A DNA stretch of 64,000 bases from the NCBI RefSeq assembly GCF_030013595.1, contig NZ_CP122768.1; one strand, written 5' to 3'. Each line of letters starts with the position of its first letter. The first letter of the stretch is position 1. Below the pieces are notes generated by a model. The model saw only the letters and a list, made by a program, of their open reading frames with translations, was not told where the DNA came from and made no database searches. The translations under genes were made by a program, and so were the position numbers. Of the stretch, positions 4,067 to 26,710 are shown piece by piece. This DNA is from Escherichia coli. Lineage in GTDB: Bacteria; Pseudomonadota; Gammaproteobacteria; Enterobacterales; Enterobacteriaceae.

Positions 4067-4339
4067 TCAACTGCGAATATCATCATACTCCCGCGTTTTA
4101 TCAAATTCGTGTTTCGCAAATGGGCATAGTGGGATAATTTTTCGTTTTTCCCGACGCATTTTTTCCACGACTTTCGCAACCAGCTGTTTACCAATCCCCT
4201 GCCCTTTCAGGCTTTCATCGACATCGGTATGTTCGATAATCGCTAAATTCTCTCCGGTCGGCACAAAGACAATTTCAGCGATTTGCTTGCCCTGTTCGTC
4301 ATTAATGTAAAATTTATTGTGGCCTTCGCGTATTTCCAT
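4067..4339 (-). CDS. yjdJ: Small GNAT-family acetyltransferase-like protein
   Basis: ORF track 90 aa, ATG at 4339; motif QGIGKQLV typical of the GNAT acetyl-CoA site; synteny with yjdI. Confidence 0.85.
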
Positions 4340-4350
4340 TTTACCCTCGC

Positions 4351-4581
4351 TTATTTATGACGGTATTTCAGCGCGCCGCTCGGGCACGTATCAATCACTT
4401 TAACCACAGTGGCAACGTCGACTTCATCCGGCATGATCCACGGCTTTCGTTTGAGATTAAATAACTTGCCGTTGCCACGTACGCAATTGCCAGAATGCTG
4501 ACATATCGCAGTATTGAAATAGACATCGATCTTTTCGCCGGTATAACAGCGATAACCCCCGTCCAGTAGCGCCCGATCCAT
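4351..4581 (-). CDS. yjdI: Small cysteine-rich protein of unknown function
   Basis: ORF track 76 aa, ATG at 4581; four Cys (CYTG, CQHSGNC, CPSG) suggest a metal or Fe-S site; 11 bp upstream of yjdJ, likely co-transcribed. Confidence 0.85.
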
Positions 4582-4761
4582 GACCTTCCCTCTCTCATCA
4601 GTATGATTATCGCTATAAGCATAGCCCCGGAATCTTCATACAGCACTGGCAGTTTCCGTTGCCAGAATCTCTTCCCCTATATAGCCAATCATTCTTACTC
4701 CCTTTGAATTACCCGCCTCATCAGAGATAATGCTTAAGAAATTTGTCACACAAGGAAGCTG

Positions 4762-6393
4762 ATGAGACATTCATTGCCCTACCGTATGTTACGCAAACGT
4801 CCGATGAAATTGAGTACCACTGTGATCTTAATGGTCAGCGCGGTACTGTTCTCGGTGCTATTGGTGGTGCATCTGATTTACTTCTCGCAAATCAGTGATA
4901 TGACGCGAGACGGGCTAGCCAACAAGGCGCTGGCAGTGGCGCGTACCCTCGCCGACTCGCCGGAAATCCGTCAGGGCTTGCAGAAAAAACCTCAGGAGAG
5001 CGGCATCCAGGCCATCGCGGAAGCCGTGCGCAAACGCAACGATCTGCTATTTATTGTCGTTACCGATATGCAAAGTCTTCGCTACTCGCATCCTGAAGCC
5101 CAGCGTATTGGTCAGCCATTTAAAGGTGATGACATCCTTAAAGCGCTGAATGGCGAAGAAAATGTCGCTATCAATCGCGGTTTTCTGGCGCAGGCTTTAC
5201 GCGTATTTACCCCCATCTACGATGAAAATCATAAACAAATTGGCGTGGTGGCGATCGGCCTTGAGTTAAGTCGCGTGACCCAACAGATCAATGACAGTCG
5301 CTGGAGCATTATCTGGTCGGTATTATTTGGCATGCTGGTCGGACTGATCGGCACCTGCATTCTGGTTAACGTACTGAAAAAAATCCTTTTTGGCCTGGAA
5401 CCCTACGAAATCTCCACGCTGTTTGAGCAGCGCCAGGCCATGTTGCAGTCTATCAAAGAAGGCGTCGTTGCCGTGGACGATCGCGGTGAAGTCACGCTGA
5501 TCAACGATGCCGCACAAGAATTGCTGAATTACCGTAAGTCGCAGGACGATGAGAAACTGTCGACGCTAAGCCACTCGTGGTCACAGGTGGTAGATGTCTC
5601 GGAAGTGTTACGCGACGGTACCCCGCGGCGCGACGAAGAGATTACGATTAAAGACCGGCTATTACTGATCAACACCGTTCCGGTGCGCAGTAATGGCGTT
5701 ATCATCGGTGCCATTTCAACCTTCAGGGACAAAACTGAAGTACGTAAACTGATGCAGCGACTCGATGGTCTGGTCAACTATGCTGACGCACTTCGTGAAC
5801 GATCCCACGAATTTATGAATAAATTGCACGTGATTCTCGGATTATTGCATCTGAAGAGTTATAAGCAGTTGGAAGATTACATTCTCAAAACAGCCAATAA
5901 CTATCAGGAAGAGATTGGCTCTCTGCTGGGTAAGATCAAATCTCCGGTTATCGCTGGTTTTTTAATCAGCAAGATTAACCGCGCGACCGATTTAGGCCAT
6001 ACGCTGATTTTAAACAGTGAAAGCCAGCTGCCAGACAGCGGCAGTGAAGACCAGGTCGCGACGCTGATTACCACGTTGGGAAATCTGATAGAAAACGCGC
6101 TGGAAGCATTAGGGCCGGAACCCGGAGGCGAAATTAGCGTAACATTGCACTACCGTCACGGCTGGCTGCACTGTGAAGTTAATGATGATGGACCGGGGAT
6201 CGCACCCGATAAAATCGATCACATTTTTGACAAAGGTGTCTCGACAAAAGGAAGCGAGCGAGGCGTCGGTTTAGCACTTGTCAAACAACAGGTAGAAAAT
6301 CTCGGCGGCAGCATCGCCGTGGAATCGGAACCCGGGATTTTCACACAATTTTTTGTCCAGATACCCTGGGACGGGGAGAGGTCGAACAGATGA
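4762..6393 (+). CDS. dcuS: C4-dicarboxylate sensor histidine kinase
   Basis: ORF track 543 aa, ATG start; two transmembrane segments, periplasmic sensing domain, PAS and HATPase motifs (DDGPGI); overlaps dcuR start. Confidence 0.93.
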   Translation: MRHSLPYRMLRKRPMKLSTTVILMVSAVLFSVLLVVHLIYFSQISDMTRDGLANKALAVARTLADSPEIRQGLQKKPQESGIQAIAEAVRKRNDLLFIVVTDMQSLRYSHPEAQRIGQPFKGDDILKALNGEENVAINRGFLAQALRVFTPIYDENHKQIGVVAIGLELSRVTQQINDSRWSIIWSVLFGMLVGLIGTCILVNVLKKILFGLEPYEISTLFEQRQAMLQSIKEGVVAVDDRGEVTLINDAAQELLNYRKSQDDEKLSTLSHSWSQVVDVSEVLRDGTPRRDEEITIKDRLLLINTVPVRSNGVIIGAISTFRDKTEVRKLMQRLDGLVNYADALRERSHEFMNKLHVILGLLHLKSYKQLEDYILKTANNYQEEIGSLLGKIKSPVIAGFLISKINRATDLGHTLILNSESQLPDSGSEDQVATLITTLGNLIENALEALGPEPGGEISVTLHYRHGWLHCEVNDDGPGIAPDKIDHIFDKGVSTKGSERGVGLALVKQQVENLGGSIAVESEPGIFTQFFVQIPWDGERSNR

Positions 6394-7109
6394 TCAATGT
6401 ATTAATTATCGATGACGACGCAATGGTCGCGGAGCTGAATCGCCGATACGTAGCACAAATCCCAAGCTTTCAATGCTGTGGAACAGCCTCGACGCTGGAG
6501 AAAGCCAAAGAGATTATCTTCAATAGCGATACGCCTATCGACCTGATATTGCTCGATATCTATATGCAAAAAGAGAACGGGCTCGATTTACTGCCTGTCC
6601 TGCATAACGCGCGTTGCAAAAGTGATGTGATTGTCATCTCCTCCGCAGCCGATGCGGCAACCATTAAAGATTCGCTGCATTACGGTGTCGTGGATTACCT
6701 GATCAAACCCTTCCAGGCTTCCCGCTTTGAAGAGGCGCTCACCGGCTGGCGGCAAAAGAAAATGGCGCTGGAAAAACATCAGTATTATGACCAGGCCGAG
6801 CTTGATCAGCTAATCCACGGCAGCAGCTCCAACGAGCAGGATCCTCGTCGCTTGCCAAAAGGCTTAACGCCGCAGACGTTACGCACGCTGTGCCAGTGGA
6901 TTGACGCGCATCAGGACTATGAGTTTTCAACCGACGAGCTGGCTAACGAGGTTAACATTTCGCGTGTTTCCTGCCGTAAATACCTCATCTGGCTGGTCAA
7001 CTGCCACATCTTGTTCACCAGTATCCATTATGGCGTCACGGGGCGTCCGGTTTACCGTTACCGTATTCAGGCAGAACACTACTCACTGCTGAAACAATAT
7101 TGCCAATAA
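6390..7109 (+). CDS. dcuR: C4-dicarboxylate response regulator
   Basis: ORF track 239 aa; receiver domain (LIIDDD, LLDIYM) plus C-terminal DNA-binding domain; ATGA overlap with dcuS stop. Confidence 0.93.
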   Translation: MINVLIIDDDAMVAELNRRYVAQIPSFQCCGTASTLEKAKEIIFNSDTPIDLILLDIYMQKENGLDLLPVLHNARCKSDVIVISSAADAATIKDSLHYGVVDYLIKPFQASRFEEALTGWRQKKMALEKHQYYDQAELDQLIHGSSSNEQDPRRLPKGLTPQTLRTLCQWIDAHQDYEFSTDELANEVNISRVSCRKYLIWLVNCHILFTSIHYGVTGRPVYRYRIQAEHYSLLKQYCQ

Positions 7110-21544: not shown

Positions 21545-21578
21545 GCCAACCTTAAGAACTTAAGGTTGGCTTAATTTT
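21545..21578 (+). terminator. Rho-independent terminator after adiC
   Basis: gccaaccttaag / cttaaggttggc 12-bp inverted repeat followed by ttaattttg. Confidence 0.7.
21559..21575 (+). promoter_or_regulatory. Putative PmrA (BasR) box upstream of eptA (CTTAAG-N5-CTTAAT)
   Basis: Direct repeat of hexamers with 5-bp spacer (cttaag gttgg cttaat) 47 bp upstream of the eptA ATG; fits the recalled PmrA-box consensus YTTAAK-N5-YTTAAK. Confidence 0.6.
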
Positions 21579-21621: not shown

Positions 21622-23265
21622 ATGTTGAAGCGCCTACTAAAAAGACCCTCTTTGAATTTACTCGCCTGGCTATTGTTGGCCGCTTTTTATATCTCTATCT
21701 GCCTGAATATTGCCTTTTTTAAACAGGTGTTACAGGCGCTGCCGCTGGACTCGCTGCATAACGTACTGGTTTTCTTGTCGATGCCGGTCGTCGCTTTCAG
21801 CGTGATTAATATTGTCCTGACACTAAGCTCTTTCTTATGGCTTAATCGACCGCTGGCCTGCCTGTTTATTCTGGTCGGCGCGGCTGCACAATATTTCATA
21901 ATGACTTACGGCATCGTCATCGACCGCTCGATGATTGCCAATATTATTGATACCACTCCGGCAGAAAGTTATGCGTTGATGACGCCACAAATGTTATTAA
22001 CGCTGGGATTCAGCGGCGTGCTTGCTGCGCTGATTGCCTGCTGGATTAAAATCAAACCTGCCGCCTCGCGCCTGCGCAGTGTTCTTTTCCGTGGAGCCAA
22101 TATTCTGGTTTCTGTACTGCTGATTTTGCTGGTCGCCGCACTGTTTTATAAAGACTACGCCTCATTGTTCCGCAACAACAAAGAGCTGGTGAAGTCCTTA
22201 AGCCCCTCTAATAGCATTGTTGCCAGCTGGTCATGGTACTCCCATCAGCGACTGGCAAATCTGCCGCTGGTGCGAATTGGAGAAGACGCGCACCGCAACC
22301 CATTAATGCAGAACGAGACACGTAAAAATTTGACCATCCTGATTGTCGGCGAAACCTCGCGGGCGGAGAACTTCTCCCTCAACGGCTACCCGCGTGAAAC
22401 TAACCCGCGGTTGGCGAAAGATAACGTGGTCTATTTCCCTAATACCGCATCTTGCGGCACGGCAACGGCAGTTTCAGTACCGTGCATGTTCTCGGATATG
22501 CCGCGTGAGCACTACAAAGAAGAGCTGGCACAGCACCAGGAAGGCGTGCTGGATATCATTCAGCGAGCGGGCATCAACGTGCTGTGGAATGACAACGATG
22601 GCGGCTGTAAAGGTGCCTGCGACCGCGTGCCTCACCAGAACGTCACCGCGCTGAATCTGCCTGGTCAGTGCATCAACGGCGAATGCTATGACGAAGTGCT
22701 GTTTCACGGGCTGGAAGAGTACATCAATAACCTGCAGGGTGATGGCGTGATTGTCTTACACACCATCGGCAGCCACGGTCCGACCTATTACAACCGCTAT
22801 CCGCCGCAGTTCAGGAAATTTACCCCTACCTGCGACACTAACGAGATCCAGACCTGTACCAAAGAGCAACTGGTGAACACTTACGACAACACGTTGGTTT
22901 ACGTCGACTATATTGTTGATAAAGCGATTAATCTGCTGAAAGAACATCAGGATAAATTCACCACCAGCCTGGTTTATCTTTCTGACCACGGTGAGTCGTT
23001 AGGTGAAAATGGCATCTATCTGCACGGTCTGCCTTATGCCATCGCCCCGGATAGCCAAAAACAGGTACCAATGCTGCTGTGGCTGTCGGAGGATTATCAA
23101 AAACGGTATCAGGTTGACCAGAACTGCCTGCAAAAACAGGCGCAAACGCAACACTATTCACAAGATAATTTATTCTCCACGCTATTGGGATTAACTGGCG
23201 TTGAGACGAAGTATTACCAGGCTGCGGATGATATTCTGCAAACTTGCAGGAGAGTGAGTGAATGA
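21622..23265 (+). CDS. eptA: Lipid A phosphoethanolamine transferase
   Basis: ORF track 21577..23265 begins at an upstream TTG; the ATG at 21622 ([14 protein letters not shown]) gives 547 aa; N-terminal TM helices plus sulfatase-like periplasmic domain; overlaps basR start. Confidence 0.9.
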
Positions 23266-23930
23266 AAATTCTGATTGTTGAAGACGATACGCTGTTATTG
23301 CAGGGATTGATTCTGGCGGCGCAAACCGAAGGCTACGCGTGCGATGGCGTGACAACCGCGCGGATGGCGGAACAAAGCCTTGAGGCCGGTCATTACAGCC
23401 TGGTGGTACTGGATTTAGGGTTACCCGACGAAGATGGACTGCATTTTCTCGCCCGTATCCGGCAGAAAAAATACACCCTGCCGGTACTGATCCTCACCGC
23501 TCGCGATACGCTGACCGACAAAATCGCCGGGCTGGATGTCGGTGCCGATGACTATCTGGTGAAGCCTTTTGCGCTGGAAGAGTTACACGCCCGTATCCGC
23601 GCCCTGCTACGACGCCATAATAATCAGGGCGAAAGTGAGCTGATTGTTGGCAATCTGACGCTGAATATGGGTCGCCGTCAGGTATGGATGGGCGGTGAAG
23701 AGTTGATTCTGACGCCCAAAGAATATGCTCTGCTGTCACGGTTAATGCTCAAAGCAGGCAGTCCGGTGCATCGGGAAATTCTCTACAACGACATCTATAA
23801 CTGGGACAATGAACCCTCGACTAACACCCTGGAAGTGCATATCCACAATCTGCGCGACAAAGTGGGCAAAGCCCGTATCCGCACCGTGCGCGGATTTGGC
23901 TATATGCTGGTCGCGAATGAGGAAAACTAA
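23262..23930 (+). CDS. basR: Two-component response regulator BasR (PmrA), OmpR family
   Basis: ORF track 222 aa; receiver domain ([14 protein letters not shown]) plus winged-helix C-terminus; ATGA overlap with eptA. Confidence 0.93.
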
Positions 23931-23939
23931 TTGAATCTG

Positions 23940-25031
23940 ATGCGTTTTCTGCGCCGACCAATATCGCTGCGCCAACGGCTGATATTGACCATTGGGGCCA
24001 TTTTGTTGGTGTTTGAGCTGATCAGCGTCTTCTGGCTATGGCATGAAAGTACCGAGCAGATTCAGCTGTTTGAGCAGGCGCTACGCGACAATCGCAACAA
24101 CGATCGCCACATCATGCGTGAGATCCGCGAGGCGGTCGCCAGCCTGATCGTCCCCGGCGTCTTTATGGTCAGCCTGACGCTATTTATCTGCTATCAGGCG
24201 GTACGCCGCATCACCCGCCCGCTGGCGGAGCTGCAAAAAGAGCTGGAAGCGCGCACCGCCGACAACTTAACGCCCATTGCCATTCACAGCGCCACCCTCG
24301 AAATCGAAGCGGTGGTTTCGGCGTTAAACGATCTGGTCAGTCGCCTGACCAACACGCTGGATAACGAAAGGTTGTTTACCGCTGACGTCGCGCACGAACT
24401 GCGAACGCCACTGGCGGGGGGGCGTTTGCATCTGGAACTGCTGGCGAAAACGCATCACATTGATGTAGCACCGTTAGTGGCACGGCTTGATCAGATGATG
24501 GAGAGCGTCTCCCAGCTGCTGCAACTGGCGCGTGCCGGACAGTCATTTTCTTCCGGTAATTATCAACATGTAAAACTGCTGGAAGATGTCATTCTCCCCT
24601 CGTATGACGAACTCAGTACCATGCTCGACCAGCGACAGCAAACCCTGCTATTGCCAGAGAGCGCCGCCGACATCACCGTTCAGGGTGATGCAACCCTGCT
24701 GCGGATGTTATTGCGAAACCTGGTAGAAAACGCCCATCGTTACAGCCCGCAAGGCAGCAACATTATGATTAAGCTGCAAGAAGATGGCGGAGCGGTCATG
24801 GCTGTTGAAGATGAAGGACCGGGTATTGATGAGAGTAAATGCGGGGAGTTGAGTAAAGCATTTGTACGTATGGACAGCCGTTATGGCGGGATTGGTCTGG
24901 GGTTAAGTATTGTCAGCCGCATTACACAGTTGCATCACGGGCAGTTTTTCCTGCAAAACCAGCAAGAGACTTCCGGCACGCGGGCCTGGGTACGGCTGAA
25001 GAAAGATCAGTACGTGGCAAACCAGATATAA
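23940..25031 (+). CDS. basS: Sensor histidine kinase BasS (PmrB)
   Basis: ORF track 23931..25031 begins at TTG; the ATG at 23940 (MRFLRRPISL) gives 363 aa; two TM segments, H-box (ADVAHELRTP), HATPase motifs. Confidence 0.9.
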   Translation: MRFLRRPISLRQRLILTIGAILLVFELISVFWLWHESTEQIQLFEQALRDNRNNDRHIMREIREAVASLIVPGVFMVSLTLFICYQAVRRITRPLAELQKELEARTADNLTPIAIHSATLEIEAVVSALNDLVSRLTNTLDNERLFTADVAHELRTPLAGGRLHLELLAKTHHIDVAPLVARLDQMMESVSQLLQLARAGQSFSSGNYQHVKLLEDVILPSYDELSTMLDQRQQTLLLPESAADITVQGDATLLRMLLRNLVENAHRYSPQGSNIMIKLQEDGGAVMAVEDEGPGIDESKCGELSKAFVRMDSRYGGIGLGLSIVSRITQLHHGQFFLQNQQETSGTRAWVRLKKDQYVANQI

Positions 25032-25096
25032 AGAAAGCTGCTGACCACCAGCACGCTGAACACGGTAGTTAAACTTTCATAAACACGGTTTTTCAT
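25007..25096 (-). CDS. pmrR: Small membrane protein PmrR (29 aa), PmrA-regulated
   Basis: Not in ORF track. Hand translation of the minus strand from ATG at 25096 to TGA at 25007 gives MKNRVYESLTTVFSVLVVSSFLYIWFATY; its 3' end overlaps the basS 3' end by 25 bp in antisense. Confidence 0.8.
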   Translation of the reverse strand: MKNRVYESLTTVFSVLVVSSFLYIWFATY

Positions 25097-25140
25097 TGCA
25101 CTCTCCTCCGTTAACCTGGAGGAGAGTATGCGCGTCAGAG

Positions 25141-25157
25141 ATTAAGTGAACCTTAAG
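25141..25157 (-). promoter_or_regulatory. Putative PmrA (BasR) box upstream of pmrR
   Basis: Minus strand reads cttaag gttca cttaat, same half-site architecture as the eptA box, about 45-60 bp upstream of the pmrR ATG. Confidence 0.6.
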
Positions 25158-25166
25158 ACTTCAATT

Positions 25167-25195
25167 GGCCTGATAAGACAGCGTCACATCAGGCC
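25167..25195. repeat. REP-like palindromic unit between proP and pmrR
   Basis: ggcctgataagacagcgtcacatcaggcc read directly. Confidence 0.6.
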
Positions 25196-25207
25196 ATCCG
25201 TTTCAGC

Positions 25208-26710
25208 TTATTCATCAATTCGCGGATGTTGCTGCACCAGGCGGGTACGTTTCGCCTGCAAATCGGCAATCTCGTGGTCAATATCATCGATTTTCTGCTC
25301 GATATTATCGTAATGCTCGACGAGAATTTCCTTCGCTTCCTGTATATCTGACGCCGCCGGTGTCGCACCTTTCAACGGACGATTTGCCGTCTCTTTCATG
25401 GTTACGCCGGTGATTAAACCAACCACCGCCACTACCATCAGGTAATAGGCAGGCATCATCAGATTCTGCGAGCTTTCGACCAGCCAGGCCGCCAGTGTTG
25501 GCGTCAGACCGGCAACCAGCACCGAAATATTAAATGCCGCCGCCAGCGCGCTGTATCGGATATGCGTCGGGAACATCGCTGGCAAGGTAGAAGCCATAAC
25601 GCCCGTAAAGCAGTTAAGGATCACCGCCAGCATCAGTAACCCGGCAAAAATCAGGCCGATGACGTTACTGTTAATCAGAATAAACGCCGGGATCGCCAAC
25701 ACAAACAGTGCAACACTACCAAGAAGCACAAACGGACGACGGCCAAAACGGTCACTCAGCAAGCCCATCACCGGTTGAACAAACAGCATACCGATCATAA
25801 TAGCGATAATAATCAGCACCCCGTGGTCTTCGGAGTAATGCAGGTTATGCGACAAATAACTCGGCATATAGGTCAGCAACATGTAGTAAGTCACGTTGGT
25901 AGCAATTACCAGACCAATACATGTCAACAGGCTGCGCCAGTGTTTGGTGGCAATCTCTTTAAACGAGACTTTCGGGCCATCCTGCAAACCTTCGCGGTCG
26001 CCCTGTTCCAGTTTATCAACATGCTGCTGGAACGCCGGAGTCTCTTCCAGCGCATGGCGCAGGTAAAGCCCGATAATCCCTAACGGCAGAGCAATAAAGA
26101 ACGGAATACGCCAGCCCCAGTCGAGGAAGTTCGCTTCGCCGACAATGGTCGAAATTAACACCACCACGCCCGCACCCAGCACAAACCCGGCAATAGAACC
26201 GAAGTCCAGCCAGCTGCCCATAAATCCACGTTTACGGTCAGGGGAGTATTCCGCAACAAATATCGACGCCCCGGTATATTCACCGCCGACCGAGAAACCT
26301 TGTGCCATCTTACAGATCAACAGCAGAATCGGTGCCCAAATACCAATCGTGTCGTAGGACGGTATTAAGCCAATACAGAAGGTACTGATCGACATAATCA
26401 CAATAGTGATAGCGAGGATCTTCTGGCGACCATATTTATCGCCCAACATACCAAAGAAGAGTCCACCAAGCGGTCGAATCAGAAAGGGAACGGAGAAAGT
26501 GGCAAGTGCAGCAACCATCTGCACGCTGGGGTCAGCCCCCGGGAAAAAAACTTTACCTAATGCGTAAGCAACAAAACCATAAACACCAAAATCAAACCAT
26601 TCCATTGCATTACCCAGTGATGCTGCGGTAATGGCTTTACGCAGTTTACCGTCATCAATAATGGTGACATCACGAAGGGTAATTGGTTTTACTTTTTTCC
26701 TTTTCAGCAT
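25208..26710 (-). CDS. proP: Proline/glycine betaine:H+ symporter, osmosensing MFS transporter
   Basis: ORF track 25208..26743; the ATG at 26710 (MLKRKKVKPITLRD) gives 500 aa; MFS signature and C-terminal coiled-coil tail (DIDHEIADLQAKRTRLVQQH). Confidence 0.92.
   Translation of the reverse strand: MLKRKKVKPITLRDVTIIDDGKLRKAITAASLGNAMEWFDFGVYGFVAYALGKVFFPGADPSVQMVAALATFSVPFLIRPLGGLFFGMLGDKYGRQKILAITIVIMSISTFCIGLIPSYDTIGIWAPILLLICKMAQGFSVGGEYTGASIFVAEYSPDRKRGFMGSWLDFGSIAGFVLGAGVVVLISTIVGEANFLDWGWRIPFFIALPLGIIGLYLRHALEETPAFQQHVDKLEQGDREGLQDGPKVSFKEIATKHWRSLLTCIGLVIATNVTYYMLLTYMPSYLSHNLHYSEDHGVLIIIAIMIGMLFVQPVMGLLSDRFGRRPFVLLGSVALFVLAIPAFILINSNVIGLIFAGLLMLAVILNCFTGVMASTLPAMFPTHIRYSALAAAFNISVLVAGLTPTLAAWLVESSQNLMMPAYYLMVVAVVGLITGVTMKETANRPLKGATPAASDIQEAKEILVEHYDNIEQKIDDIDHEIADLQAKRTRLVQQHPRIDE

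Follow-up and report, generated by a model that had tools for sequence, protein, structure and literature searches.

The 3' end of the sensor kinase gene basS (pmrB) of Escherichia coli is met by a very short reading frame on the opposite strand, preceded by an inverted repeat and a putative promoter. The question addressed here is what this frame encodes, how it is switched on, and what the repeat contributes. The window analysed was a stretch of 64,000 nucleotides of E. coli DNA. A preliminary description of it, made from the letters of the sequence, had proposed that a minus-strand ORF of 29 codons encodes the membrane peptide PmrR. This ORF is present in the ORF list at 25007..25096 (-), and its translation, MKNRVYESLTTVFSVLVVSSFLYIWFATY, agrees with the letters of the sequence. 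As 143 ORFs of at least 20 aa overlap the surrounding 10 kb, a lone 29-codon ORF is not above chance; the significance of pmrR rests on its family match (E = 5e-21) and its conservation. The peptide matched the NCBIfam equivalog model for PmrR, NF033224, with 74.2 bits (cut-off 30), residues 1-29 aligning over their full length with model positions 1-29. Residues T10-A27 form the hydrophobic stretch, and the C-terminal motif conserved among PmrR peptides is W-x-x-T/S-Y/F.

Comparison with annotated E. coli pmrR, a check suggested by the preliminary description, gave the same gene in the RefSeq genomes and in K-12. Of 5426 complete E. coli genomes in RefSeq, 5408 carry the annotation pmrR ("LpxT activity modulator PmrR"); the K-12 counterpart is b4703 (4332116..4332205). 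Few SNPs distinguish the window from K-12, all of them outside the box, the hairpin and the ORF. The gene is convergent to basS at the 3' end of the kinase gene and adjoins proP. It is the same gene as PmrR of Salmonella enterica and E. coli K-12, and nothing of substance differs. The region is thus very probably the E. coli pmrR gene together with its BasR (PmrA)-activated promoter. As pmrR is already annotated and studied, this identification is correct but ordinary. The features of the locus are listed in the table.

Table. Features at the basS-pmrR locus (window coordinates)
Feature	Position	Strand	Description and basis
PmrA box of the eptA-basRS operon promoter	21559..21575	+	CTTAAGGTTGGCTTAAT; pattern search; conserved
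basS (pmrB), sensor kinase gene	23940..25031	+	ORF list; RefSeq annotation; 1092 nt in K-12
pmrR mRNA 3' UTR, antisense to basS	24907..25006	-	PMC10687069, Supplementary Data 4
Rfam RF02052 'STnc630' match	25000..25165	-	181.4 bits (gathering score 55); model positions 1-166 of 166
pmrR CDS	25007..25096	-	29 aa, ATG start, one hydrophobic helix; ORF list, NF033224 match, RefSeq/K-12 annotation
Mapped RNA 3' end, pmrR strand	25094..25096	-	K-12 4332116-4332118; Term-seq, TRS; 4-6 nt past the stem
Hairpin	25100..25127	-	5' arm 25127..25118, loop 25117..25110, 3' arm 25109..25100
Predicted PmrA-dependent transcription start	25117..25118	-	7-8 nt after the -10-like hexamer; K-12 4332094/5; promoter geometry
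-10-like hexamer CATACT, inferred promoter element	25125..25130	-	10 nt downstream of the box
PmrA (BasR) box of the pmrR promoter	25141..25157	-	CTTAAG-GTTCA-CTTAAT; pattern search; conservation; published deletion
REP-like inverted repeat	25166..25196	.	Separates the PmrA box from the proP stop codon (25208..25210); 14-nt arms, 86% complementary

The pathway in which PmrR acts has been published. Active BasS/BasR (in response to Fe3+, mild acid, or low Mg2+ via PmrD) acts through CTTAAG-N5-CTTAAT to switch on a promoter without a -35 element. The resulting 29-residue membrane peptide inhibits the lipid A 1-phosphotransferase LpxT, and EptA then adds phosphoethanolamine at lipid A position 1 in place of a second phosphate. 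The founding Salmonella work on this feedback is represented here by the papers citing it (PMC8004244, PMC8129183, PMC11429745). The feedback on lipid A modification anticipated in the preliminary description agrees with this function and with the lpxT-dependent phenotypes in PMC8129183, and the predicted membrane location agrees with published fractionation of PmrR with membranes (PMC11429745). In the same study translation-initiation profiling placed PmrR among the small proteins induced at low Mg2+, while its overproduction slowed growth, its expression appearing tightly balanced. Like MgrB, which inhibits PhoQ, and MgtS, which stabilises MgtA, both of them small membrane peptides that regulate envelope two-component circuits, PmrR is a short single-helix peptide that is induced by the same stress network and binds a membrane protein (PMC11429745). 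Unlike these, it targets an enzyme, LpxT, rather than a sensor, and its gene lies convergent against the kinase gene of its own regulator.

The box upstream of pmrR (25157..25141, minus strand) reads CTTAAGGTTCACTTAAT and lies about 60 nt upstream of the ATG. Its likeness to the box of eptA, suggested earlier, was borne out: CTTAAK-N5-CTTAAK has only two matches in the 64 kb, those of pmrR and eptA, compared with a mean of 0.06 in shuffled sequences, only 2 of 100 of which attained two matches. The box also fits YTTAAK-N5-YTTAAK and is conserved, which would class the promoter as PmrA/BasR-dependent; TTAA-N7-TTAA is invariant in the 54 aligned sequences (54/54). These comprise 53 Enterobacteriaceae species and the window. 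Salmonella entered the comparison only through the Rfam consensus, since the BasS genome scan returned none. In E. coli, deletion of the pmrR PmrA box alone in a PmrA-constitutive strain gave polymyxin sensitivity and deoxycholate resistance, both lpxT-dependent (PMC8129183).

A hexamer of the form nAnACT follows exactly 10 nt past the box in 48 of the 54 sequences. The eptA promoters match this geometry, with box, 10 nt and nAnnAT in 15 of 16 loci. No sigma-70 consensus promoter was found at pmrR, as is expected of an activator-dependent promoter. From the spacing, transcription is predicted to start at the top of the 5' arm of the hairpin; the supplements of Cappable-seq and SMRT-Cappable-seq contained no entry for a pmrR start near K-12 4332xxx. 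Citrobacter amalonaticus lacks the REP-like repeat further upstream; only 2 nt separate its proP stop codon from the box.

Of the parts of this locus, the hairpin between box and ORF is the only one to which the current analysis adds something, and it has no published function. It had been described as a 26-bp palindrome at 25101..25126. An inverted repeat is indeed present, but it is not a perfect 26-bp palindrome: two perfectly complementary 10-bp arms (25100-25109 and 25118-25127) flank an 8-nt spacer. The 3' arm includes the Shine-Dalgarno sequence GGAGG (25109..25105), which precedes the ATG by 8 nt. The RNA of the pmrR strand folds at -19.4 kcal/mol (z = -5.3). Among the 54 sequences, 87.6% of the stem cells are paired (41-50% with slid partners), 58 cells carry double changes (4-14 in slid controls), compensatory change is seen at 6 of the 10 stem pairs, and RNAalifold recovered the stem from the alignment. 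An operator for a dimeric protein in the DNA was considered and rejected, because only complementarity, and not the sequence of the arms, is conserved between genera. No U-tract follows the hairpin, which is therefore not a canonical terminator.

The arrangement is shared by related genera. A syntenic ORF of 28-33 aa, convergent at the 3' end of pmrB/basS, was found in 55 of 80 related loci, and box, -10-like hexamer, hairpin and ORF co-occur in these 55, while the PmrA box downstream of pmrB was absent from all 25 loci that lack the ORF (25/25). On this comparative evidence the four elements form one module. Despite nucleotide divergence, the genera share the length of the ORF, its start codon and the C-terminal motif. 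In Klebsiella, the peptide has 30 aa (MQKINFREYLAVATALVIIVAFFHQWVLTF); the peptide of Klebsiella-type genomes is not recognised by the current NCBIfam model.

The whole module also matches an Rfam family, RF02052 (STnc630), an Enterobacterial sRNA candidate from Salmonella Hfq co-immunoprecipitation sequencing, with the same 166 nt and the same hairpin in its consensus structure. A locus producing a non-coding RNA, with the ORF incidental, would account for this full-length match of 181 bits, but such a reading is extremely improbable. The published coordinates of the candidates STnc470-STnc640 are whole intergenic regions and not transcript ends (PMC2515195). The model, whose first position is 8 nt upstream of the PmrA box, covers the proP-pmrB intergenic region, that is the promoter, the hairpin and the entire pmrR; a family bounded in this way, which includes a PmrA box and a protein-coding ORF, describes an mRNA locus and not an sRNA. 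No discrete non-coding STnc630 transcript with the ends of the model was found, and the mapped 3' ends (4332116-8 and 4332305) differ from the model end. A full-text literature search for 'STnc630' gave no result. Besides the conservation of ORF length, start codon and C-terminal motif, the reading is already contradicted by the finding that complementation of a pmrR deletion requires the start codon (PMC11429745).

Published RNA 3' ends lie directly behind the hairpin, the stem of which ends at K-12 4332112. Term-seq placed a 3' end at 4332116(+), labelled 'internal pmrR' (PMC7815308), and a TRS peak lies at 4332117/8, the upstream gene being said to terminate inside the pmrR CDS (PMC10687069). 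A terminator-like site within the CDS (25053..25039) was tried as this reported end and rejected (z = -0.3 against shuffles), the mapped 3' ends being at the start codon. As these ends are attributed to the upstream gene, they indicate that read-through RNA carrying both arms exists. The upstream gene is co-directional with pmrR in both genomic contexts (proP in Escherichia, uvrB in Klebsiella-type genomes), and in some species its stop codon abuts the box or falls within it.

In the transposase genes of IS10 and IS50, the downstream arm of an inverted repeat covers the ribosome-binding site and transcription from the gene's own promoter begins within the repeat, so that only transcripts from outside fold and are silenced. 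This fold-back inhibition of read-through transcripts was reportedly described by Davis, Simons and Kleckner in 1985 and by Schulz and Reznikoff in 1991. At pmrR the 3' arm likewise covers the ribosome-binding site, the Shine-Dalgarno sequence lying within it in all 54 sequences. The pmrR start inside the repeat, in contrast, is a prediction from the box, the 10-nt spacing and nAnACT, by analogy with eptA. Moreover, pmrR is a chromosomal gene for a regulatory peptide and not a transposase gene, and its hairpin also marks an RNA 3' end.

We tentatively favour a reading in which the hairpin may be a conserved insulator, built into the promoter, that shields pmrR from proP or uvrB read-through by an IS10-type fold-back in a chromosomal stress-peptide gene. 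The 5' arm would occupy the stretch from the -10 element to the predicted +1 and the 3' arm the ribosome-binding site, so that transcripts started by BasR would lack the 5' arm, escape the hairpin and be translatable. Read-through RNA from proP or uvrB would carry both arms, fold and bury the ribosome-binding site; it would remain untranslated and, by termination or trimming, would end at the pmrR start codon. The predicted probability that the Shine-Dalgarno arm is unpaired was 0.37 in RNA from the predicted +1 compared with 0.11 in read-through RNA, and accessibility was higher from the predicted +1 in 45 of the 54 sequences. Against this insulator, even the predicted short transcript has its Shine-Dalgarno sequence unpaired with a probability of only 0.26-0.37, and the 3' end, behind a stem that lacks a U-tract, may be a product of trimming. 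Low Mg2+ also failed to induce a single-copy transcriptional reporter of the pmrR upstream region significantly (PMC11429745). The need for insulation is weaker in Klebsiella-type loci, which already have another, terminator-like hairpin upstream of the box.

If transcription in fact starts further upstream, the hairpin would lie in the 5' UTR of every pmrR transcript and would throttle or condition PmrR translation, for example by keeping a growth-inhibiting peptide low or by acting as a temperature- or factor-dependent switch. The stem buries the Shine-Dalgarno sequence in all species, which fits this reading, as do the slow growth on PmrR overproduction and the apparently tight balance of its expression (PMC11429745). 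We consider it somewhat unlikely, however. Between box and nAnACT the alignment is unconserved and contains no alternative -10 element, and the spacing from box to -10, the same as at the eptA promoters, puts +1 where the 5' arm ends. In addition, a stem of 10-14 bp over the Shine-Dalgarno sequence (up to -22 kcal/mol) would leave a PmrA-induced gene almost untranslatable, yet PmrR is among the induced small proteins in translation-initiation profiling (PMC11429745).

Alternatively, the repeat might control the level of basS mRNA by forming a stem-loop at the 3' end of the eptA-basRS transcript on the opposite strand. The RNA of that strand folds at -18.9 kcal/mol (z = -5.5), almost as well as that of the pmrR strand (means of -13.4 and -14.5 kcal/mol, respectively), which also counts against the insulator reading. 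In a colistin-resistance study, pmrB(BL21) with 86 bp of downstream sequence did not confer colistin resistance, and pmrB mRNA was about 315-fold less abundant than when 126 bp were included (PMC8004244), and the +86 end point (window 25117) halves the repeat. This role is nevertheless quite unlikely. The half-life of pmrB mRNA was no different (1.0 vs 0.83 min; PMC8004244), and the end points fit the pmrR promoter too, since +103 (25134) adds the -10 element and +126 (25157) completes the PmrA box. The plus strand has no U-tract after the stem, many genera carry a canonical pmrB-strand hairpin with a T-run beyond the box, and the mapped 3' ends sit on the pmrR strand. Wobble pairs at the nine inner positions favour the pmrR strand (34 vs 10), although this asymmetry nearly vanishes when the terminal pair is included (34 vs 28), and the counts give only moderate support to a strand assignment.

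The overlap of pmrR with the end of basS raises a further possibility. As claimed in the preliminary description, the overlap is 25 bp (25007..25031, including both stop codons), the basS frame stopping at 25031. It is identical in K-12 (pmrR 4332116..4332205, basS 4332181..4333272), and both the overlap and the PmrA-box promoter have already been described for E. coli (PMC8129183). The pmrR transcript continues for about 100 nt beyond its stop codon, antisense into the end of basS, and is stopped by Rho: the primary terminus is at K-12 4332305 (window 24907), giving a 3' UTR of 101 nt (PMC10687069), and a strong Rho termination region lies antisense to basS at 4332468 (score 8.6, p = 2.7e-37). 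With the pmrR 3' end 100 nt inside basS, the convergent transcripts overlap, and a study of E. coli RNA-seq catalogues the pair with the convergent excludons that it detected (PMC12288877). The interplay of the two transcripts supposed earlier is plausible. Interference by polymerase collision or RNase III cleavage of the duplex, feeding back on the kinase, would be consistent with this listing, the antisense 3' UTR and the Rho region. As the main role of the locus it is unlikely: an effect of pmrR transcription on basS expression is hypothetical, and induction of arnT was the same after deletion of the pmrR PmrA box (PMC8129183). The overlap is also not conserved between genera (-8 to +57 bp), and since pmrR and basS share one activator, mutual exclusion is not the obvious logic.

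The pathway picture is left unchanged by these results. They show that ORF, PmrA box and anti-Shine-Dalgarno hairpin are one conserved module in many Enterobacteriaceae, including Klebsiella-type genomes, and that the deletion end points of PMC8004244 coincide with parts of the pmrR promoter. If the insulator reading is true, the effect of the 'pmrB 3'-downstream region' on colistin resistance would become a requirement for the pmrR promoter, and the mechanism would be shared by 54 distinct Enterobacteriaceae sequences across two genomic contexts. The gene matters for resistance to polymyxin/colistin and bile salts, because PmrR decides between phosphorylation of lipid A position 1 by LpxT and its modification with phosphoethanolamine, and the hairpin may serve, in a testable way, to keep PmrR synthesis strictly dependent on BasR.

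The 29-codon ORF that had been described as antisense to the 3' end of basS (pmrB) is real, the two genes having 25 bp (25007..25031) in common, and its product, MKNRVYESLTTVFSVLVVSSFLYIWFATY, was identified as PmrR. The peptide matched the NCBIfam equivalog model NF033224 ("LpxT activity modulator PmrR") over its full length (74.2 bits, cut-off 30). Its counterpart in K-12 MG1655 is b4703 (4332116..4332205), and the surrounding 401 bp were found at >=95% identity in 5408 of 5426 complete E. coli genomes, in which pmrR carries a RefSeq annotation. BasR (PmrA) activates pmrR via its box, and PmrR in the membrane blocks LpxT, favouring EptA-dependent modification of lipid A (PMC8129183). That study depicts pmrR and pmrB of E. 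coli as overlapping genes and marks the PmrA box; in it, deletion of the box alone from a PmrA-constitutive strain caused polymyxin sensitivity and deoxycholate resistance, both lpxT-dependent. Induction at low Mg2+ was detected for PmrR, along with other small proteins, by translation-initiation profiling; the peptide is membrane-associated, and complementation of a pmrR deletion requires the start codon (PMC11429745). PMC8004244, too, mentions this ORF of 90 bp and gives the overlap as 25 bp. The feature was thus correctly interpreted in the preliminary description, and had been annotated and studied experimentally before; a conserved hairpin lies between the PmrA box and the pmrR start codon.

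Coordinates (window) of the features at the basS-pmrR locus and of published constructs
Feature	Coordinates	Strand	Basis or remark
eptA	21622..23265	+	ORF listing and K-12 annotation
basR	23262..23930	+	ORF listing and K-12 annotation
basS	reading frame ends at 25031	+	ORF listing and K-12 annotation
pmrR (29 codons, ATG start)	25007..25096	-	ORF listing
proP	25208..26710	-	ORF listing and K-12 annotation
PmrA box of pmrR	25157..25141	-	CTTAAK-N5-CTTAAK pattern match
PmrA box of eptA	21559..21575	+	CTTAAK-N5-CTTAAK pattern match
Third CTTAAG half-site, eptA	21551..21556	+	2 nt upstream of the eptA box
Inverted repeat (hairpin)	25100-25109 / 25118-25127		perfect 10 bp, 8-nt spacer
Shine-Dalgarno sequence, GGAGG	25109..25105		8 nt upstream of the pmrR ATG
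Short hairpin and T-rich run	25039..25053		within pmrR, just past the basS stop
REP-like inverted repeat	25166..25196		between proP and the PmrA box
Construct +86 (PMC8004244)	ends at 25117		lacks 5' arm and promoter; no colistin resistance
Construct +103 (PMC8004244)	ends at 25134		hairpin and -10, no box; colistin MIC 4 ug/mL
Construct +126 (PMC8004244)	ends at 25157		PmrA box exactly complete; colistin MIC 16 ug/mL

The Rfam family RF02052 ("STnc630") matched 25000..25165 (-) with 181 bits. According to the family's source paper, the coordinates of STnc470-STnc640 are those of whole intergenic regions, so that this "sRNA" family corresponds to the proP-pmrB spacer, i.e. pmrR with its promoter. 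As it spans both the box and the ORF, RF02052 looks like a mislabelled mRNA locus and not an sRNA.

The PmrA box upstream of pmrR (CTTAAGGTTCACTTAAT) shares the architecture of the eptA box, as had been proposed: these were the only two matches to CTTAAK-N5-CTTAAK in 64 kb, compared with a mean of 0.06 in shuffled sequence. The third half-site next to the eptA box (ccttaagaaCTTAAGgttggCTTAAT) was present in the window and in at least one more Escherichia locus (L004, from the BasS scan). A hexamer, nAnACT, lies 10 nt past the pmrR box and keeps both critical -10 positions (A2, T6). At eptA-type boxes the hexamer 10 nt downstream was nAnnAT in 15 of 16 loci, supporting nAnACT as the -10 element of an activator-dependent promoter; a search for a sigma-70 consensus promoter at pmrR found none. 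Judged by this spacing, transcription of pmrR would start 7-8 nt past nAnACT, at 25118/25117, on the final nucleotide of the hairpin's 5' arm or the initial nucleotide of its loop. The predicted start position is occupied by A in most species. That the hairpin lies within the 5' UTR of pmrR itself is, next to this predicted start, unlikely.

In two Escherichia loci (L001:4077-4205 and L004:4077-4205), an additional in-frame ATG arises through a SNP in the spacer that separates the box from the -10; use of this ATG would lengthen the ORF to 42 aa (MCILSSRLTEESA-MK...). Being located 5' of the predicted +1, it is unlikely ever to be translated. The REP-like repeat was seen in Escherichia; Citrobacter amalonaticus lacks it and has 2 nt between the proP stop codon and the box. 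That the Rfam consensus begins 8 nt before the box suggests that the repeat is missing from Salmonella too.

The BasS scan, with one genome per species, returned 80 loci. An antisense ORF of 28-33 aa was found at the pmrB end in 55 of these; in the 25 loci lacking the ORF, no box was present downstream of pmrB. Conserved in the PmrR-type peptides were a hydrophobic core, F at -9 and W at -5 from the C-terminus, and a C-terminal T/S followed by Y/F. The order of box, spacer, nAnACT, hairpin and ATG was alike in all 54 distinct upstream sequences (53 Enterobacteriaceae species and the window). The TTAA-N7-TTAA of the box was invariant (54/54), and the box-to-hexamer spacer, not conserved in sequence, was 10 nt long in 48/54.

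Two genomic contexts were seen for this module, each with a co-directional upstream gene: proP in Escherichia and Citrobacter amalonaticus, and uvrB in Klebsiella, Raoultella, Kosakonia, Kluyvera, Phytobacter and Pseudocitrobacter (e.g. loci L028, L014 and L013, uvrB at about 4250-6400, minus strand). The first PmrA half-site of the Kosakonia loci (L038, L061) contains the TAA stop codon of uvrB, so uvrB transcription must enter the pmrR promoter. Syntenic 30-aa peptides with box, -10 and hairpin were observed in these six genera (L009-L061), for example MQKINFREYLAVATALVIIVAFFHQWVLTF in Klebsiella pneumoniae (L020:4050-4142). The NCBIfam PmrR model gave no match to the Klebsiella-type peptides or scored below its cut-off; with the same layout, the peptides in the uvrB context are probably unannotated PmrR orthologues.

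The "26-bp palindrome" of the preliminary description exists as an inverted repeat, but its shape is that of two 10-bp arms and an 8-nt spacer. The RNA fold has -19.4 kcal/mol (z = -5.3). In the alignment of the 54 sequences, 87.6% of the stem cells were paired, compared with 41-50% when partners were slid by 1-3 columns, and 58 cells carried changes on both sides (4-14 in the slid controls). Compensatory changes affected six of the ten stem pairs (e.g. CTCC/GGAG, CTCA/TGAG, CTGA/TCAG, CCCA/TGGG), and RNAalifold recovered the identical stem. The complementarity of the arms is conserved but their sequence is not, which favours a nucleic-acid structure over a protein-binding site. Every aligned sequence has its Shine-Dalgarno sequence within the 3' arm. 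The hairpin is part of the RF02052 consensus structure, uncommented, and no function was assigned to it in the pmrR literature examined.

The repeat might also be read on the other strand, as a 3' stem-loop of basS mRNA. Wobble pairs among the nine inner pairs numbered 34 on the pmrR strand and 10 on the opposite strand, but 34 and 28 when the terminal pair was added, making the sequence-based strand assignment moderate; a basS stem-loop appears improbable. The short hairpin within pmrR (TGCTGGTGGTCAGCA, then a T-rich run) did not surpass shuffled sequence on the pmrR strand (z = -0.3) but did so on the basS strand (z = -3.0), and may serve basS mRNA as a 3' structure.

Published 3' ends on the pmrR strand include one by Term-seq at K-12 4332116, labelled "internal pmrR" (PMC7815308), and a TRS peak at 4332117/8 (PMC10687069); in the latter study, SEnd-seq shows the upstream gene terminating within the pmrR CDS. 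Since the stem end maps to 4332112, proP-derived RNA ends at the start codon of pmrR, 4-6 nt past the hairpin. For pmrR itself the primary 3' end was mapped to 4332305 (window 24907), so that its RNA extends 100 nt antisense to basS (PMC10687069). Published bicyclomycin Term-seq data place a strong Rho termination region further downstream on the pmrR strand, at 4332468 (window about 24744; score 8.6, p = 2.7e-37), and its position antisense to basS indicates that Rho restricts the distance over which pmrR or proP read-through transcription extends into the kinase gene. The pmrR-basS pair has been listed among convergent excludons (PMC12288877). The coding overlap ranged from -8 to +57 bp among the loci, so the convergent position is conserved and the 25-bp overlap is not; that an excludon is the main role of the arrangement seems quite unlikely.

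The 176-bp "3'-downstream region of pmrB" of PMC8004244 corresponds to 25032..25207. The half-life of pmrB mRNA showed no difference between constructs +86 and +126, and the graded resistance therefore tracks the stepwise return of the pmrR promoter. The rise in colistin MIC would reflect restoration of this promoter, leaving part of the mRNA data of that study unexplained.

For the hairpin, we give close to an even chance to a role in separating BasR-initiated from read-through RNA. BasR-initiated RNA, beginning at the loop-side end of the 5' arm, would form no stem and leave the ribosome-binding site free. Read-through RNA from proP or uvrB would contain both arms and fold, burying this site; left untranslated, it would either be released at the hairpin itself or run on to Rho-dependent termination downstream, with subsequent trimming back to the hairpin. 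Folding predictions point the same way, the unpaired probability of the Shine-Dalgarno arm being 0.37 from the predicted start and 0.11 in read-through RNA, with a difference in this direction in 45/54 sequences. The transposase genes of IS10 and IS50 are guarded against outside transcription by fold-back inhibition, and the role proposed for the pmrR hairpin would follow the same logic.
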